NCBI GenBank assembly: GCA_910580105.1 | Contig: CAJTWN010000019.1 | Location: 1 to 26,211, forward strand | Direction of reading: 5' to 3' | DNA: 26,211 nt | DNA from: an uncultured Clostridia bacterium | GTDB taxonomy: Bacteria > Bacillota > Clostridia > Monoglobales > Monoglobaceae | Part shown: piece by piece, positions 5,351 through 16,377 of the stretch | Layout of the letters: each line of letters opens with the position of its first letter | How positions within the stretch are numbered: position 1 is the stretch's first letter | Notes under the pieces: generated by a model | What the model saw: the letters and a program-made list of their open reading frames with translations, nothing else | What the model was told of the DNA's origin: nothing | Database searches by the model: none | Position numbers and translations under genes: made by a program

Positions 5351-8110
5351 ATGGCGCAAACAAAAAAGAGCGGGACCGCAGCGAAAAAAAGAGGCCGTGC
5401 CCAGACGGCAAAAAAACCGCCTGCCAAAACAAATAAACGGACGACACCACAAAAATCGGCAGAAGAAATACAACAGCTGCGACGGCTGCGCAATGAAATC
5501 AAAGGAATCGTTTTAATCGCATTGGGATTGTTTTTGGGATTTGTCTTTTTGTTTCCGGACAGTACCGGCAGTGTGGGACATTTCTTAAAGGACTTGTTCT
5601 TCGGCCTGTTCGGCTGGATATGTACAATCACCTTTCTCTGCGTCATCCTGATGGGCGTCAATGTTTTAATGAACAAAGACGGCGGAAGCTGGAAAAAAAT
5701 CTGCCTGCTTTTGGGTTTGGTTATGCTGACTTCCGTGATTCTCAGCCTGTTTTCCGGAGACCGGACCTTTGACGATCCGGGTTTTGTGGGAAATATCAAA
5801 CAGATGTATGATTTGGGGACTTCCGGTCATGGCGGCGGCGTCATCGGCGGCGGATTGTGCCGAATTCTTGTGACCGCGATTGGAACGGCAGGTGCATGGG
5901 TTTTGGCTGTTGCGCTGGAGCTGATTCTTATTATTTTGCTGACAGGCGTATCGGTAATCGGACTTGTCCGGCAGTTTGCAGGATATGTACAGGAACGGGC
6001 ACAGATTTCCAGAGAAAGCCGGGAAGAACGAAAAGAAATTGAACGCAAACCTGAACCGGAACCAAAGAGGCCGCGTACAAAAGAGGGAACTGCAAAGAAA
6101 TCAGAGAAAAAGCCAAAAGCATCTGCCTTCTTTGATCAATATTTCACCGGCGAAAAGATAATTGATGATTCGCCAAAGGCAGAGCCGGAAGAAAACGACG
6201 GCAGTATAAAAGAACAATCTGCCTGGGAGGATATGCCCAAACGGTTCACTTTCGAAGAAGATGACCAACTGCTGAAAGATTTATTCCCGGAAGAAGAGAC
6301 AAAACAAATTTTTGACGAAGACCTGCCTTTTGAAATCGACAATATGAAGACCGGGGTACTCACCGCACTTCCGGATGAAAATGGTGAATATAAAAAGCCG
6401 GTGGAAAATGAAGAGGGGACGGACTATGAGCCCCCCAGCCAGGCGAAGCTTGAGGATGTGCTGGATCCTCTGACCAAAAAGGCACTGAAAACCGGCGCCG
6501 CTATGGACGAAGCCGTGGTGCGCGGACGGCATATGGCCACAGAGGAAACACAGACACCCGAAGAACAGATACAGAACCAGATTGAAGAAGACCGGTCGTT
6601 GCTGCCGAGAGTGATTCAGTATCATATGCCCACAACAGACCTGCTGGAAAAACCACAGGCAAAAAATAAAACCAAAGCAGAAGTTAAGCGTGAACTGGAG
6701 GAAAAAGCCAACCGCCTTCTTGCAACACTCAGCAGTTTTAAAGTAGACGCCAATATCATTAACATTACCCAGGGTCCTTCGGTCACACGGTTTGAACTAC
6801 AGCCCGGTTTCGGCGTGAAGGTTTCGAAAATTACCGGTCTTGCAGATGATATTGCACTCAGCCTTGCGGCTCCGGGTGTGCGGATTGAAGCGCCCATTCC
6901 CGGTAAATCCGCCATCGGTATTGAGATACCAAATGCCCATCCCAACCCGGTACATATCCGCGAAGTCATTGACAGTGATAAATTCAGAAACTTCAAATCT
7001 AAAACAGCATTTGCATTGGGAAAGGACATCAGCGGCAACAATGTCGTAGCAGACATTGCAAACTTCCCCCATGTTTTGATTGCCGGCGCGACCGGATCAG
7101 GAAAGAGTGTCTGTATCAATTCACTGATTACCAGTATTTTATTCAAAGCAAAACCGGACGAAGTCAAAATGATAATGGTTGACCCCAAAATGGTAGAACT
7201 TGGCGTCTATAATGGAATTCCCCATCTGCTGATTCCGGTGGTCACCGATCCGAAACATGCCGCCGGTGCCCTCAACTGGGCGGTGGGCGAAATGAAAAAC
7301 CGGTATAATCTGCTGAAAGACAACAAGGTAAGAAATTTAAAGGGCTATAATCAATTGATGGAGGAAAACGGAGAACCGGAAGCAAAACTGCCCGAAATTG
7401 TCATCATTATTGACGAGCTTGCCGATTTGATGATGGCAGCAAAAAATGAAGTGGAAGATGCCATCAACAGCCTTGCCGCCCTTGCCCGCGCGGCCGGAAT
7501 GTATCTGGTTATCGCAACCCAGCGTCCGTCTGTCAATGTCATTACCGGTGTTATCAAGGCCAATGTTCCATCGCGTATATCCTTTGCAGTATCTTCCCAG
7601 GTGGACAGCCGCACCATCATTGACTCTCCCGGCGCCGAAAAGCTTTTGGGAAAAGGTGATATGCTCTACAGCCCACGGGGAGAAATTAAACCATTGCGTG
7701 TACAGGGGAATTTTGTGTCCGATCATGAAATTGAAGACATAATTACGTTTATAAAAAGCCAATATGAGGCAGAATATGATGAAAGCATCATTGAAAATAT
7801 TGAAAAGGAACATGAACGCGTAGCGGCAGACCTGGACAGCAGCGGCACAGAAACAGCTGCGGCGGGAGAATCAGCCGGACAGGACCACAAGGATGCCCTT
7901 TTCTATGATGCAGTTGAAATGGTATTGGAAAGCGGCCAGGCTTCGGTGGCAATGTTCCAGCGGAAATTCAAAATCGGCTATCAGCGGGCTGCAAGATTAA
8001 TCGACCAGATGGAAGAACGCCGGATTATCGGCCCATATGAAGGGACAAAGCCGCGCCAGGTCTTGATTACACGCCAGGAATTCAATGAAATGCGTTTTCA
8101 TAATGAGTAA
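5351..8110 (+). CDS. ftsK: DNA translocase FtsK/SpoIIIE
   Basis: 919 aa. It has N-terminal TM helices, a charged linker, a motor domain with Walker A GATGSGKS and Walker B IIIDELADL, and a C-terminal gamma winged-helix (FQRKFKIGYQRAARLIDQMEERRIIGP). AAGGAG RBS. Confidence 0.92.
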   Translation: MAQTKKSGTAAKKRGRAQTAKKPPAKTNKRTTPQKSAEEIQQLRRLRNEIKGIVLIALGLFLGFVFLFPDSTGSVGHFLKDLFFGLFGWICTITFLCVILMGVNVLMNKDGGSWKKICLLLGLVMLTSVILSLFSGDRTFDDPGFVGNIKQMYDLGTSGHGGGVIGGGLCRILVTAIGTAGAWVLAVALELILIILLTGVSVIGLVRQFAGYVQERAQISRESREERKEIERKPEPEPKRPRTKEGTAKKSEKKPKASAFFDQYFTGEKIIDDSPKAEPEENDGSIKEQSAWEDMPKRFTFEEDDQLLKDLFPEEETKQIFDEDLPFEIDNMKTGVLTALPDENGEYKKPVENEEGTDYEPPSQAKLEDVLDPLTKKALKTGAAMDEAVVRGRHMATEETQTPEEQIQNQIEEDRSLLPRVIQYHMPTTDLLEKPQAKNKTKAEVKRELEEKANRLLATLSSFKVDANIINITQGPSVTRFELQPGFGVKVSKITGLADDIALSLAAPGVRIEAPIPGKSAIGIEIPNAHPNPVHIREVIDSDKFRNFKSKTAFALGKDISGNNVVADIANFPHVLIAGATGSGKSVCINSLITSILFKAKPDEVKMIMVDPKMVELGVYNGIPHLLIPVVTDPKHAAGALNWAVGEMKNRYNLLKDNKVRNLKGYNQLMEENGEPEAKLPEIVIIIDELADLMMAAKNEVEDAINSLAALARAAGMYLVIATQRPSVNVITGVIKANVPSRISFAVSSQVDSRTIIDSPGAEKLLGKGDMLYSPRGEIKPLRVQGNFVSDHEIEDIITFIKSQYEAEYDESIIENIEKEHERVAADLDSSGTETAAAGESAGQDHKDALFYDAVEMVLESGQASVAMFQRKFKIGYQRAARLIDQMEERRIIGPYEGTKPRQVLITRQEFNEMRFHNE

Positions 8111-13841: not shown

Positions 13842-13917
13842 GCTACCGTGGCTCAGCAGGTAGAGCAGCTCACTCGTAATGAGCAGGTCGTCCGTTCAAA
13901 TCGGATCGGTAGCTCCA
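13842..13917 (+). tRNA. tRNA-Thr, anticodon CGU, with encoded CCA
   Basis: Hand-folded cloverleaf: acceptor gctaccg/cggtagc, D stem gctc/gagc, anticodon stem gctca/tgagc with loop ctCGTaa, T stem gtccg/cggat with loop ttcaaat, discriminator T plus CCA. Confidence 0.9.
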
Positions 13918-13942
13918 CGTCGCAGCGAACTACGCTGCATTC

Positions 13943-13972
13943 AAAAATCCCAGCCTTTGGCTGGGATTTTTT
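13943..13972 (+). terminator. Rho-independent terminator after tRNA-Thr
   Basis: atcccagcc-ttt-ggctgggat (9-bp stem) followed by T6. Confidence 0.7.
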
Positions 13973-13997
13973 CATATGCTTCGTTGCTGCTCCTCTT

Positions 13998-14078
13998 TCG
14001 CGAAAAGGCACGCTTGCTGCGGCTATGCCCTTGTAAACGCGGGCATCACGCCTCCGCTGCGCTACCACCTTTTCGCGA
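13998..14078. repeat. 11-bp inverted repeat enclosing an inner hairpin; each arm contains a TTCGCGA(A) palindrome core
   Basis: tcgcgaaaagg (13998-14008) versus ccttttcgcga (14068-14078). The inner hairpin is atgccc (14025-14030) pairing with gggcat (14041-14046). Confidence 0.5.
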
Positions 14079-14152
14079 GGTTGCGCCTACGGCACAAATA
14101 TCTATATTGTTCTATTTTCCCAAATCTCAAGTTTTTTAATTATTGACTTTAT

Positions 14153-14179
14153 GCGCCATTGCGGCGCTTTTTGTTTTTT
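14153..14179 (+). terminator. Possible short terminator with no associated ORF
   Basis: gcgcc-attgc-ggcgc (5-bp GC stem) followed by tttttgtttttt. Confidence 0.3.
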
Positions 14180-14347
14180 CAAACGTATGACCAAAAACTT
14201 TTGAAATAGATGCCCAAAAAGAAAAATTTATTCAATTGAACCATCTGTGCCAGAATCCCCAAACGCAATATCCGAATTATCTGAATTTTCAGATGCAAAA
14301 CAGATAAAAATCCGCTTCTGCCTTGGCGGATGTCCGGTGACGCAGGA

Positions 14348-14368
14348 CAGGGGGCAGGGGGCAGGGGG
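14348..14368. repeat. Tandem heptamer (CAGGGGG)x3
   Basis: Direct reading gives cagggggcagggggcaggggg. Confidence 0.9.
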
Positions 14369-14526
14369 CTGTGTCGGACTTTGTGCATTTGCAGTTATAT
14401 CTGGCAATATGTATATTGACGCCGCCTTCTTTGTCTTTCTTGCGGTGCGGGGAAATGCCTAAAATAAATTTACGCAGAATGCTGATTTCCTGTTTTCTAA
14501 TCACCATGCCTTACGTTGGCACGCCA

Positions 14527-14555
14527 TTGCACTTCATATGGGGTATACGCATAAT
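14527..14555 (+). promoter_or_regulatory. Candidate promoter for the toxin-immunity operon
   Basis: TTGCAC (14527-14532), 17-nt spacer, CATAAT (14550-14555), about 45 nt upstream of the toxin ATG. Confidence 0.3.
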
Positions 14556-14602
14556 CAGAGCTTGAAAAAAGTAAAGGTGTATGATACGATTGGAGTGATA
14601 AA

Positions 14603-15124
14603 ATGACGTATAGTAAAAACTGGGTGACTTGGATTGCAATTATCACAATGGGGATTTGCCCGGGATGTTATTTCCGTAATGGGAAGATCTATTCCTATGA
14701 CGAATTGCAAGCGATTGGTGAGCCGCAGCTGCATCCAAACTGCAAATGTTTTTTACAGCAGATGGAGGCAATCAAAGCAGGTCAAGCCACAAAATTGGGT
14801 ATGAACGGTGCAGATTGGTGGATAAAGTATCTCCAGAAATTACCGGATTACTACATTACGCGAGAAGAAGCGAAGGCGCTTGGCTGGAGAAAAAAGAAAG
14901 GCAATTTCGCACAGGCGGCGCCTGGATATATGCTCTTTGGCGGGGAGTATAGAAACAAAGATAATATACTGCCGCGAAAAGCAGGACGAATTTGGTATGA
15001 GACAGACCTGAATTATACTGACGGCTATCGTACAAATGACAGACTGATGTTTTCCAATGACGGACTTATTTTTGTGACATATGATCACTATCATACATTT
15101 GCAGAAATAATAGGGGAGGAATAG
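14603..15124 (+). CDS. Barnase-family ribonuclease toxin carrying only the C-terminal tail of a phage MuF/SPP1-gp7 head-morphogenesis domain
   Basis: Residues ~70-170 align with B. amyloliquefaciens barnase along most of their length (KLPDyYITreEAkALGW..KGN.A..APG..GG...LP..GR.W.E.D.NYT.G.R..DR...DHY.TF). Catalytic Glu73, Arg83, Arg87 and His102 equivalents are all present. Residues ~10-52 (WIAIITMGICPGCYFRNGK...PQLHPNCKC) match the spacing of the MuF C-terminal W..(x)C..C...GK...PP.HPNCRC motif. GGAG RBS 6 nt upstream. Confidence 0.85.
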   Translation: MTYSKNWVTWIAIITMGICPGCYFRNGKIYSYDELQAIGEPQLHPNCKCFLQQMEAIKAGQATKLGMNGADWWIKYLQKLPDYYITREEAKALGWRKKKGNFAQAAPGYMLFGGEYRNKDNILPRKAGRIWYETDLNYTDGYRTNDRLMFSNDGLIFVTYDHYHTFAEIIGEE

Positions 15125-15127
15125 AAA

Positions 15128-15403
15128 ATGGAGAAAATTACTTTGGATTTTACCGGCTGTAAATCGCCGCTGCTGCTGCATATGATTTTTAAAGAAACCT
15201 TTGGGTTTCCGGATTTCTATGGGAAAAACTTATATGCTTTATGGGACTGTCTCCGGGACTATTGTCCGGACGACTGCATCATTTACGTAAAAGGAACCCG
15301 GACACTCCCAAAGGAATTTGGAGAATATATGGAAAGGATTTATGAAATTTTTCATGATGTAGAAGAAGAAGGGGAAAATATTCAATTTGTGATTGTTTCC
15401 TGA
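15128..15403 (+). CDS. Barstar-family RNase inhibitor (immunity protein), allele A, copy 1
   Basis: 91 aa. FPDFYGKNLYALWDCL aligns with the barstar barnase-binding helix LPEYYGENLDALWDCL. A GGGGAGG RBS overlaps the toxin 3' end, and the ATG lies 3 nt after the toxin stop. Confidence 0.9.
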   Translation: MEKITLDFTGCKSPLLLHMIFKETFGFPDFYGKNLYALWDCLRDYCPDDCIIYVKGTRTLPKEFGEYMERIYEIFHDVEEEGENIQFVIVS

Positions 15404-15438
15404 GCATTATGCAATCCCTGTCACATCTGCGTTTCCGG
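15128..15438 (+). repeat. Perfect 311-bp direct repeat, copy 1 (identical to 15993-16303)
   Basis: Base-by-base comparison of the two stretches shows no mismatch. Identity breaks at -1 (a/g) and at +312 (a/c). Confidence 0.95.
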
Positions 15439-15557
15439 ATTTGAATTATACCGGCAGCTATCACACAAATGACCGGCTGTTGTTTTCAGATAATGGATTG
15501 GTCTTCGTGACATATGATCACTATCAAACGTTTGCAGAAATAATAGGGGAGGAATAG
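15432..15557 (+). pseudogene. Orphan barnase-toxin 3' fragment 1 (last ~39 codons, no start codon)
   Basis: Translates as FPDLNYTGSYHTNDRLLFSDNGLVFVTYDHYQTFAEIIGEE*, homologous to toxin residues 135-173. It lacks the N-terminal two-thirds including the catalytic Glu, and has no ATG or RBS. Confidence 0.75.
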
Positions 15558-15560
15558 AGA

Positions 15561-15836
15561 ATGAACGAAATTATATTGGATTTGACAGGGTGTAAATCGT
15601 TATTGGAATTACACCTGATTTTCAAAGAAACTTTTGGATTTCCTGATTTTTACGGAAAAAATTTGGATGCTTTATGGGATAGTCTTTGGGAATACTGTCC
15701 GGAAGATACCATTGTTTATGTAAAGGGAACCAAGACACTTCCAAAAGAATTTGGAGAATACATGGAAAAGATTTATGAAATCTTTCATGATGTAGAAGCA
15801 GAAGACGACAACATTCATTTTGTGATTGTTTCCTGA
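15561..15836 (+). CDS. Barstar-family RNase inhibitor (immunity protein), allele B
   Basis: 91 aa, identical to allele A at 71/91 positions by my count (20 differences). FPDFYGKNLDALWDSL retains the barstar Asp35 equivalent. GGGGAGG RBS. Confidence 0.9.
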   Translation: MNEIILDLTGCKSLLELHLIFKETFGFPDFYGKNLDALWDSLWEYCPEDTIVYVKGTKTLPKEFGEYMEKIYEIFHDVEAEDDNIHFVIVS

Positions 15837-15864
15837 GCATTATGCAATTCCTGTCACATCTGCG

Positions 15865-15975
15865 TTTCCGGATTTGAATTATGCCGGCAGCTATCACACA
15901 AATGACCGGCTGTTGTTTTCCAATGACGGACTTATTTTCGTGACATGTGATCACTATCAAACGTTTGTGAAATAA
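15865..15975 (+). pseudogene. Orphan barnase-toxin 3' fragment 2 (1-nt deletion, premature stop)
   Basis: Translates as FPDLNYAGSYHTNDRLLFSNDGLIFVTCDHYQTFVK*. Relative to fragment 1, a 1-nt deletion (tttgcagaaataa becomes tttgtgaaataa) gives an earlier TAA. No start codon. Confidence 0.75.
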
Positions 15976-15992
15976 CAGGGGAGGAATAGAAG

Positions 15993-16268
15993 ATGGAGAA
16001 AATTACTTTGGATTTTACCGGCTGTAAATCGCCGCTGCTGCTGCATATGATTTTTAAAGAAACCTTTGGGTTTCCGGATTTCTATGGGAAAAACTTATAT
16101 GCTTTATGGGACTGTCTCCGGGACTATTGTCCGGACGACTGCATCATTTACGTAAAAGGAACCCGGACACTCCCAAAGGAATTTGGAGAATATATGGAAA
16201 GGATTTATGAAATTTTTCATGATGTAGAAGAAGAAGGGGAAAATATTCAATTTGTGATTGTTTCCTGA
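15993..16268 (+). CDS. Barstar-family RNase inhibitor (immunity protein), allele A, copy 2
   Basis: Nucleotide-identical to 15128-15403, with the same RBS context. Confidence 0.9.
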   Translation: MEKITLDFTGCKSPLLLHMIFKETFGFPDFYGKNLYALWDCLRDYCPDDCIIYVKGTRTLPKEFGEYMERIYEIFHDVEEEGENIQFVIVS

Positions 16269-16303
16269 GCATTATGCAATCCCTGTCACATCTGCGTTTC
16301 CGG
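15993..16303 (+). repeat. Perfect 311-bp direct repeat, copy 2 (identical to 15128-15438)
   Basis: See copy 1. The offset is exactly 865 bp. Confidence 0.95.
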
Positions 16304-16342
16304 CAATGACAGTAAAGCAAATTTTCATCTTTTTTCAAAAAG

Positions 16343-16377
16343 ACCGCAAAGCGTTTGGCTTTGCGGTTTCTTGTATT
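16343..16377. terminator. Bidirectional terminator between the immunity array (+) and yyaL (-)
   Basis: accgcaaagc-gtttg-gctttgcggt (10-bp stem). ttcttgtattt follows on the plus strand and tcttttt on the minus strand. Confidence 0.65.

Follow-up and report, generated by a model that had tools for sequence, protein, structure and literature searches.

We analyzed a 26,211-nt stretch of DNA from an uncultured Clostridia bacterium of the Monoglobaceae (contig CAJTWN010000019.1; hereafter, the window), in which a small toxin gene is followed by three barstar genes. Our preferred interpretation, to which we give a probability of about 0.55, is that this locus is a working toxin/immunity cassette, a member of a stand-alone family, that serves conflict between strains and uses its additional barstar alleles for immunity. 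The toxin is predicted to join a compact, MuF-derived zinc-knuckle subdomain to a barnase-type endoribonuclease with an intact predicted active site. The locus is one ordinary member of a short, phage-less form of this fusion, for which we found no description in the literature on MuF, barnase/barstar or polymorphic toxins. Hence, tiny toxin/antidote cassettes of this family, carried in the chromosomes of gut Clostridia, have apparently not been described so far. The cassette consists of the following elements, where HMM stands for hidden Markov model:

14603-15124, + strand: toxin gene, 173 aa, with a mini-MuF domain (residues ~1-60), an invariant AGxAT linker and a barnase RNase domain (residues ~68-169)
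15128-15403, + strand: barstar 1 (allele A, 91 aa); PF01337, 73.4 bits; PDB barstar, E 1e-7
15438-15557, + strand: orphan toxin tail 2 (last 38 codons plus stop); toxin HMM positions 134-169, E 4e-14
15561-15836, + strand: barstar 2 (allele B, 91 aa); PF01337, 71.7 bits
15871-15989, + strand: orphan toxin tail 3, a pseudogene; toxin HMM, E 4e-13
15993-16268, + strand: barstar 3; PF01337, 73.4 bits; identical to barstar 1 (276/276 nt)
16269-16306, + strand: post-barstar segment closing the third unit; the repeat breaks at GTTTCCGG, followed by CAATGAC

Regarding the toxin, residues 78-169 match the Pfam Ribonuclease family PF00545 (E 3.8e-11; 43.8 bits, with a cut-off of 24), and the family profile finds barnase in the PDB with an E-value of 1.3e-36, placing residues 68-168 onto barnase 9-109 (101 residues). 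In this alignment, barnase Glu73, Arg83, Arg87 and His102 correspond to toxin E133, R143, R147 and H162, all of them invariant among 105 homologues. An AlphaFold model built on the family alignment reached a pLDDT (predicted local distance difference test) of 93 and a pTM (predicted template modeling score) of 0.87. Using Foldseek, its C-terminal part superposes on barnase chains with target-normalised TM-scores of 0.87-0.89 and root-mean-square deviations of 1.6-2.0 Å, at 46-50% identity. An initial annotation of this DNA had described a barnase-like open reading frame (ORF) of 173 aa with all catalytic residues retained, and these results bear it out.

The N-terminal part is related to phage head proteins. 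Residues 8-50 match the C-terminal end of Phage_Mu_F (profile positions 67-110 of 112) with 22.7 bits, under the cut-off of 29.6. The only NCBIfam match, TIGR01641 (SPP1 gp7), is likewise partial and sub-threshold (26.8 bits vs 39.65), and PHROGs gives weak matches of the same 45 N-terminal residues to head-morphogenesis and minor-head families. Phage minor-capsid/MuF proteins can be superposed on the first ~50 residues of the model with deviations of 1.2-2.6 Å. Hence, among the profiles that the initial annotation had pointed to, PF00545 and PF01337 score above their cut-offs, whereas Phage_Mu_F and TIGR01641 are matched partially and below threshold; its proposal of a barnase-type toxin with a MuF-derived N-terminus and barstar immunity genes is supported. 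Within this domain, W10, C19 and C49 are invariant in the 105 homologues, while C22, H44 and C47 are kept in at least 90% of them and are invariant in smaller alignments. The Cys/His pattern would correspond to a zinc knuckle and, judging from the alignments, the N-domain is under purifying selection. Residues 7-19 of the window toxin (14603-14680), WVTWIAIITMGIC, are unusually hydrophobic, with a 12-residue hydropathy of 2.14 compared with a median of 0.71 in the family, and values above 1.6 were found in only 6 of 102 homologues. These hydrophobic residues form a MuF-like beta-hairpin in the AlphaFold model, and the stretch may reflect a membrane or secretion feature specific to this lineage, or just drift within the beta-hairpin.

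This short architecture is the norm in a large family. A protein search gave 736 relatives and, among the best 120, all of which align over 92-100% of the query, 102 are 165-179 aa long. By scanning one genome per species we confirmed at least 578 loci, nearly all in Clostridia from gut metagenomes; carriers among the loci listed include Oscillospiraceae, Acutalibacteraceae, Ruminococcus, Monoglobus and the isolates Hydrogeniiclostridium mannosilyticum and Acetivibrio sp. When the N-domain by itself was used as the query, an exhaustive HMMER search yielded 171 clusters at E<=1e-10. The 49 N-domain relatives that we inspected were barnase fusions or truncated, frameshifted or internally deleted copies, two or three of them with unclear tails, and there were no long MuF proteins among them. 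Neither this search (same fusion or fragments) nor a word-indexed one (short broken copies) revealed other toxin domains on the mini-MuF module. One protein of 366 aa with two similar zinc motifs, P0306, was set aside as a different protein. As far as these alignments allow us to judge, the mini-MuF module is a distinct, old clade tied to barnase, and neither a set of independent truncations nor a carrier of varied toxin domains.

Homologues from metagenomes are often internally deleted or frameshifted: P0121, P0137 and P0198 are devoid of the middle of the RNase domain, and P0195 also belongs to this set. In P0320, the N-part of the toxin is fused in frame to the C-terminus of the barstar. 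These broken homologues suggest that the toxin is frequently inactivated while the locus persists.

The family is also detached from phages. In eight Pfam-annotated chromosomal settings, including the window, we found no portal, terminase or capsid genes within 8-10 kb of the cassette. After clustering the ORFs within 4 kb of the cassettes, no ORF family was present in more than 6 of 86 loci, and no partner gene for secretion, holin, portal or integrase was shared. The gene was found in just 2 viral contigs out of 2.9 million. The cassette was not found in sequenced GenBank phages, where a single weak MuF-tail match came from a Microcystis phage, and sequenced plasmids gave barnase-domain-only matches, in Bacillus and Clostridium plasmids. 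PADLOC defence models matched neither the toxin nor the barstars. One of the loci in viral collections, on an IMG/VR contig (L096, 7899-8821), has the cassette on the opposite strand within a prophage structural module, between head-tail and tape-measure genes; this phage encodes an HK97-type portal and a ClpP-capsid fusion, and has no canonical MuF gene. Its toxin is a 200-aa variant with an N-terminal extension, and belongs to a sub-family of 185-200 aa (with P0227, P0272, P0188 and P0204) that shares a conserved extension of ~30 residues, MYIKKxCGYV...GLLDxFxPPT. This extension may be a further piece of the MuF domain.

The three barstars of the window match PF01337 (cut-off 23.4) and no other family, with no DNA-binding domain in the Pfam scan. 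The first of them lies 3 nt after the toxin stop, as initially annotated. Three barstar genes with a diverged second copy had been proposed as well, and both points hold, since all three match PF01337 and copy 2 is 79.7% identical to allele A; but copies 1 and 3 are identical at the DNA level, so that the window contains two alleles and not three. The proposed excess of immunity genes over toxins is confirmed too, with three barstars for one toxin gene. Between barstar 2 and allele A, synonymous divergence (dS) is 1.21 and non-synonymous divergence (dN) 0.12, with a dN/dS of 0.10. By these values, allele B is an old allele under purifying selection that was put into a young scaffold by recombination. 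Asp35 of barstar is an interface residue of the classical barnase-barstar complex; the position aligned with it holds Tyr in copies 1 and 3, Asp in copy 2 and, in some strains, Ser. At the Asp39 position, all three copies retain Asp. Together, the acidic interface residues Asp35 and Asp39 make up the DxxxD motif of barstar (Zhang et al. 2012, PMC3482391).

Positions 15009-16306 are made of a 433/432-nt unit repeated three times, each comprising the last 38 toxin codons, a barstar and the 38 nt past its stop, and a repeat search of the window returned only the repeats of this array. Both internal unit junctions are identical, with GTTTCCGG joined to ATTTGAATTAT, which argues for a single illegitimate duplication having made the junction; unequal crossing-over can account for the third unit. 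The content of the array does not correspond to simple divergence in place, because barstars 1 and 3 are identical, barstar 2 is at 79.7%, the 38-nt post-barstar segments are 90-97% identical among units, and tail 3 is mosaic. Indeed, tail 3 combines stretches of tails 1 and 2; moreover, it has lost 1 nt and has Cys in place of the nearly invariant Tyr160.

The two orphan toxin 3' fragments of the initial annotation are therefore real, with 84% nucleotide identity to the live tail for tail 2 and 84-89% for the orphan tails overall. Both have His at the position of the invariant Arg83. Tails 2 and 3 have no start codon or ribosome-binding site (RBS) of their own, and the ORFs called by the program begin at a TTG within the preceding barstar. 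All three tails retain the RBS GGGGAGG, 8 nt ahead of each barstar ATG, and we infer that the orphan tails persist only through the last ~15 nt, which carry the RBS of the next barstar. They had been proposed to form a silent cassette reservoir. Our data speak against it: the tails are of the same barnase type, carry the Arg83-to-His change and bear strain-specific frameshifts, so they look like decaying pseudogenes, by-products of the array rather than a reservoir.

To place the array in its species, the interval between tRNA-Thr and the DUF255 (yyaL-like) gene was compared with six conspecific contigs from other samples. Flanks are 99% identical and the order gyrA / tRNA-Thr / toxin / barstar / DUF255 is the same in all of them, but the arrays vary, so the interval is not identical throughout. 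The toxin is nearly invariant, with differences from the window at two residues (G21E and M149L). The arrays read A-B-A in two contigs, as in the window, A'-B-A' in two, A-A-A in one and a single barstar in one, these copy numbers coming from short-read assemblies, where the contigs that encode exactly this toxin or this DUF255 protein stop at the repeat edges. In the barstars, the C-terminal third is reshuffled between alleles, and the frameshifts of the orphan tails differ from strain to strain, which marks the tails as unselected coding sequence. From these comparisons, unequal crossing-over and gene conversion have remodelled the array within the species, giving one to three copies, mosaic alleles and changes at the Asp35 position.

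Across the family, a barstar lies directly 3' of the toxin in 78 of 80 loci. It is single in 63 of the 80, there are two or three in 15, and one locus (L005) has five in tandem, while another contig with an identical toxin shows one barstar. Copies within one array are 39-93% identical. Extra barstars are found upstream of the toxin in L045 and L101 and toxin fragments in L018, L086 and L092, while L070 and L082 each carry a tandem pair of complete modules. Distances between toxins co-vary with those between the adjacent barstars (r 0.63, with 0 of 2000 permutations as high), a correlation to which shared ancestry contributes. The adjacency and this co-variation lend indirect support to the barstar being an inhibitor that binds the neighbouring RNase. 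Two strains with the same locus (P0010 and P0019) have a nearly identical N-terminal half of the toxin and a diverged RNase half.

According to our interpretation, a cell with the cassette would make an RNase that is lethal to relatives without the matching barstar, and the extra, diverged barstars would shield the producer from the toxin alleles of rivals, widening or raising its immunity. Having no signal peptide and no linked export genes, the toxin would leave the cell by lysis or by a route encoded elsewhere, for instance if its MuF piece directs it into phage-type capsids produced in trans. The three-unit array arose by one tandem duplication of the 433-nt unit, followed by unequal crossing-over and gene conversion. 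We favor inter-strain conflict because diverged inhibitor arrays, inhibitor-only copies and allelic variation in the RNase half resemble immunity to incoming toxins, not an antitoxin. Several observations weigh on the other side. No export signal or machinery is visible at this locus or at those of the family, which points to an intracellular role: a signal peptide is not conserved in the toxin family (N-terminal median hydropathy of 0.71, with charged residues there in 75 of 102), and none of the 86 loci has linked phage or secretion genes that could provide the export route. The single barstar of 63 out of 80 loci also fits a simple toxin-antitoxin pair, and the single-copy array among the conspecific contigs may be a collapsed assembly, since short-read contigs break at the repeat. 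Besides, as all sampled N-domain relatives carry barnase or a broken barnase, the family is devoid of the domain-level polymorphism of classical polymorphic toxins. Concerning mobility, the window has no repeat of the tRNA-Thr 3' end, even allowing 3 mismatches. A bolder version of the export step, which we consider unlikely, is that mini-MuF serves as a minimal capsid-targeting tag, so that a chromosomal barnase is loaded in trans, via portal binding, into phage or phage-like heads and injected into the next cell. If true, the bacterium would turn the virions of other elements into toxin syringes with the toxin and immunity genes kept off the phage genome; newly lysogenised competitors would inherit no immunity, and barstar arrays would be the counter-measure in an arms race.

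One could argue that the cassette acts instead inside the cell, as a toxin-antitoxin, addiction or abortive-infection module in which the barstar restrains the RNase until a trigger such as a phage, or in which the pair stabilises the islet; the trigger would perhaps be phage infection, sensed through binding of the MuF-like piece to the phage portal. The compact two-gene operon with 3-nt spacing, the one toxin and one barstar of most loci, the missing export signal and delivery genes, and the occurrence as a small mobile islet beside tRNA genes or as a moron in a prophage, as is typical for toxin-antitoxin and defence genes, are in line with this idea. However, there is no match to PADLOC defence models, the toxin comes first in the gene order and the barstars have no DNA-binding domain. 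Moreover, arrays of 2-5 diverged inhibitor genes and inhibitor-only copies are unexpected for an antitoxin, and are a hallmark of immunity to incoming toxins. Barnase-barstar binding is also among the tightest known, which fits poorly with release by decay of the antitoxin. So, we regard an intracellular module as possible but doubtful. The high similarity to barnase (46-50% identity, TM-scores of 0.87-0.89) could likewise suggest an ordinary released RNase with an intracellular protector, in the style of Bacillus amyloliquefaciens barnase/barstar, used for nutrient scavenging and with barstar copies simply raising the inhibitor dosage; the identity of barstars 1 and 3 and the A-A-A strain do look like dosage amplification. 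But a signal peptide is not conserved in the family, the invariant MuF-derived zinc domain would have no role there, barstar B is an old selected allele (dS 1.2, dN/dS 0.1) rather than a dosage copy, the arrays of other species are strongly diverged, and the cassette is patchy and mobile, all of which makes this scenario improbable.

The initial annotation had read the locus as the stranded stump of a prophage MuF-barnase polymorphic toxin, with a delivery domain cut locally to its last ~50 residues and tails acting as a reservoir for tip/immunity swaps. Residues 8-50 are indeed homologous to the end of the MuF domain, the nucleotide identity of the orphan tails to the live one makes crossovers physically possible, and the strain difference M149L equals the residue found in the tails. 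Nevertheless, the ~170-aa form is not a local truncation, because its length is conserved, the Cys/His ligands of the N-domain are kept and it occupies unrelated, non-phage sites in hundreds of species. The same length and start are seen in 102 of the best 120 homologues and in at least 578 genome loci. The N-domain is also under apparent purifying selection, the samples of its profile search (171 clusters) contain the same fusion or broken copies and no long MuF proteins, and the gene is carried by only 2 viral contigs and by no sequenced phage. Together with tails that have lost Arg83, are frameshifted differently among strains and encode the same toxin type, this leaves the stranded stump as the least credible of the explanations, and a very improbable one.

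In order to contextualize the cassette, we compared it with known systems. Barnase is among the toxin domains linked to MuF, with barstar as its immunity protein, in a ‘MuF’ trafficking class whose fusions were placed in prophage remnants together with terminase, portal and capsid genes (Zhang et al. 2012, PMC3482391). Of bacterial muf genes, 96% are in prophages or their remnants, beside portal/terminase genes (Jamet et al. 2017, PMC5576092). Like these toxins, the one described here has a MuF-homologous N-terminus, a C-terminal toxin domain of ~105 residues and a small immunity gene (a 91-aa barstar) directly downstream, and its hosts are gut Firmicutes. Unlike them, it retains only the last ~45 of 112 MuF profile positions, with scores under the Pfam/TIGRFAM cut-offs, it has no such genes beside it in any of the Pfam-annotated contexts and is nearly absent from viral collections, and its toxin domain is constant. 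In the terms of Jamet et al., the C-terminal extension of at least 100 aa with a toxin domain and the small immunity ORF are present, whereas the complete N-terminal MuF domain (PF04233, PF06152 or MuF3/4) is not, the structural match extending over ~50 residues. The locus thus resembles both a MuF toxin locus and barnase/barstar, and is devoid of three defining features of the MuF family: a complete MuF domain, prophage context and variable toxin domains. Simple barnase-barstar gene pairs have also been noted (Zhang et al. 2012, PMC3482391). With the Bacillus pair our cassette shares close homology in sequence and fold, the catalytic residues, a barstar with the Asp39 position and the toxin-then-immunity order; it differs by an invariant zinc-knuckle domain in place of the secretion signal, by barstars that are amplified and diversified into arrays, and by behaving as a mobile islet.

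The orphan arrays of CDI (contact-dependent inhibition), Rhs and Maf loci also have downstream 3' toxin fragments with intact immunity genes, homology to the live toxin and strain-variable copy number and content. Here, in contrast, the fragments are of 38 codons and of the same toxin type, with the catalytic/interface Arg mutated and frameshifts, and the distinct, potentially functional tips of those arrays are absent. As all units share one duplication junction, they derive from tandem duplication and gene conversion and not from serial tip displacement. The AID orphan-immunity clusters of gut Bacteroidales (Ross et al., bioRxiv 10.1101/471110) are similar in being strain-variable, horizontally acquired immunity arrays of gut commensals that exceed the toxins of the cell. 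They differ from our arrays, in which the host is Gram-positive, a live cognate toxin is attached, there is a single immunity family and no recombinase gene lies in the cluster. Finally, type II toxin-antitoxin systems are also bicistronic, with a toxin and a protein inhibitor, but the barstars match PF01337 only and there is no PADLOC match.

MuF toxins are predicted to be common in the gut, and their delivery has not yet been shown. In the family described here, the MuF part is stripped to a 60-residue invariant zinc-knuckle module detached from phages, which may be a minimal targeting signal or have another job, such as RNA binding; the latter, if true, would change how MuF fusions are read in general. 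The arrays would also indicate that Gram-positive commensals of the gut assemble immunity-gene arrays that vary among strains, comparable to the AID clusters of Bacteroidales. In addition, the natural barstar variants at the Asp35 position (Tyr, Ser and Asp) are candidates for orthogonal barnase/barstar pairs in engineering.

Cassettes of this family are frequently found at tRNA genes. In 22 of 80 loci (27%), the cassette has a tRNA within 1 kb whose 3' end points towards it, compared with a background of 1.6% of flank positions, while the 5' end faces the cassette in only 2 of 80. Counted over the examined loci, these tRNAs represent at least 13 different species. At three unrelated loci (L013, L039 and L050), perfect direct repeats of tRNA 3' ends bracket 1.1-1.4 kb that contain the cassette and no recombinase. 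These repeats are of 42 nt of the tRNA-Arg 3' part plus terminator in L013/L038 (L013 7595-7636 and 8971-9012), of 60 nt of the tRNA-Glu 3' part plus terminator in L039 (536-595 and 1634-1693), and of the tRNA-Ala 3' part plus terminator in L050, with 71 nt exact, or ~158 nt with 3 mismatches (5579-5649 and 6893-6963). CIME (cis-mobilizable element)-like elements are integrase-less islets flanked by tRNA genes. These three cassettes resemble them in size (~1.1-1.4 kb), in the perfect tRNA 3'-end repeats and in having no recombinase inside; the differences are the use of at least 13 tRNA species and the lack of a repeat in the window. No integrase or recombinase was found in the window, and none recurs near the cassettes of the 86 loci, recombinase fragments being present 4 kb away in L102. 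As for a tRNA-integrated islet, the position at a tRNA 3' end is seen in the window, but an attL/attR repeat and an integrase are not. From the relatives at many tRNA 3' ends, some of them between att-like repeats, we infer that the cassette is mobile, and how att-flanked, integrase-less cassettes of ~1.3 kb move between many tRNA genes is a puzzle.

The remaining features around the cassette in the window are:

13842-13917, + strand: tRNA-Thr(CGT), with its 3' end pointing at the cassette; ARAGORN; Rfam tRNA, 65.1 bits
13943-13973, + strand: hairpin followed by a T-run directly 3' of tRNA-Thr, AAAAATCCCAGCCtttgGGCTGGGATTTTTT, probably the tRNA-Thr terminator; direct sequence reading
13985-14086, + strand: structured non-coding element of ~102 nt (‘tRNA trailer’ repeat); blastn, alignment and covariance model
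14562-14590, + strand: promoter-like site, TTGAAA, 17 nt, TACGAT, with TG upstream; weak, the site count not being above that of shuffles
16341-16369, no strand assigned: bidirectional terminator-like hairpin, common to the convergent DUF255 gene

The tRNA-Thr, whose adjacency to the locus had been annotated correctly, is upstream of the toxin gene on the same strand, with 686 nt from its end to the gene. By direct reading, the toxin RBS is a GGAG at 14592-14595, 7 nt ahead of the ATG. As the hairpin at 16341-16369 is the sole terminator-like site on the + strand 3' of the toxin start, a single polycistronic transcript is the simplest reading, and the toxin and the three barstars probably form one operon, with its promoter shortly before 14603 and this terminator at its end. 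A putative internal barstar promoter in the toxin tail, at 15057-15085, was dropped; its site count was not above shuffles and it has no counterpart in units 2 and 3. The neighbours in the window are gyrA, FtsK, GGDEF, GH38, GH3, the DUF255/YyaL-like gene and GluRS, and we detected no phage, integrase or secretion genes across its 26 kb, in agreement with the initial annotation. Six-frame HMM scans gave no MuF, toxin or barstar remnants in 13918-14602 or in the rest of the window other than the annotated pieces. The GC content of the array is 0.37-0.39, compared with 0.43-0.50 in the flanking genes. Between the tRNA and the toxin gene, the non-coding stretch contains a G-rich tandem repeat (GGGGCAG x3, at 14345-14370), which overlaps with a minus-strand ORF of 72 codons (14289-14507). 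The window cassette adjoins gyrA, and another one (L103, 10001-10898) lies between glyS and dnaA in a replication-origin gene cluster, which may be a coincidence.

The ~102-nt element is conserved and also lies beside related cassettes of other species, in L019 (6917-7018, - strand), L021 (5140-5241, - strand), L024 (5700-5803 and 6883-6987, + strand) and L101 (8874-8973, + strand). Its closing stem, CGCAAAAAGG / CCTTTTTGCG, has compensatory changes at three pairs, and matches to its covariance model score 97-114 bits; no Rfam family matches it. In three species it lies 64-68 nt past the 3' end of tRNA-Thr, tRNA-Pro and tRNA-Arg. We counted 63 metagenome loci and, in 20 of 55, the core lies 80-88 nt past the end of a tRNA, with at least 11 kinds of tRNA represented. 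Two copies flank the cassette in L024 and L163. That the element is the end of a cassette-carrying mobile element was mostly rejected: a toxin or barstar is nearby in ~8 of 64 loci and the rest have ordinary host genes. Candidate identities for the element are a tRNA-trailer repeat, a recombination site and a small RNA.

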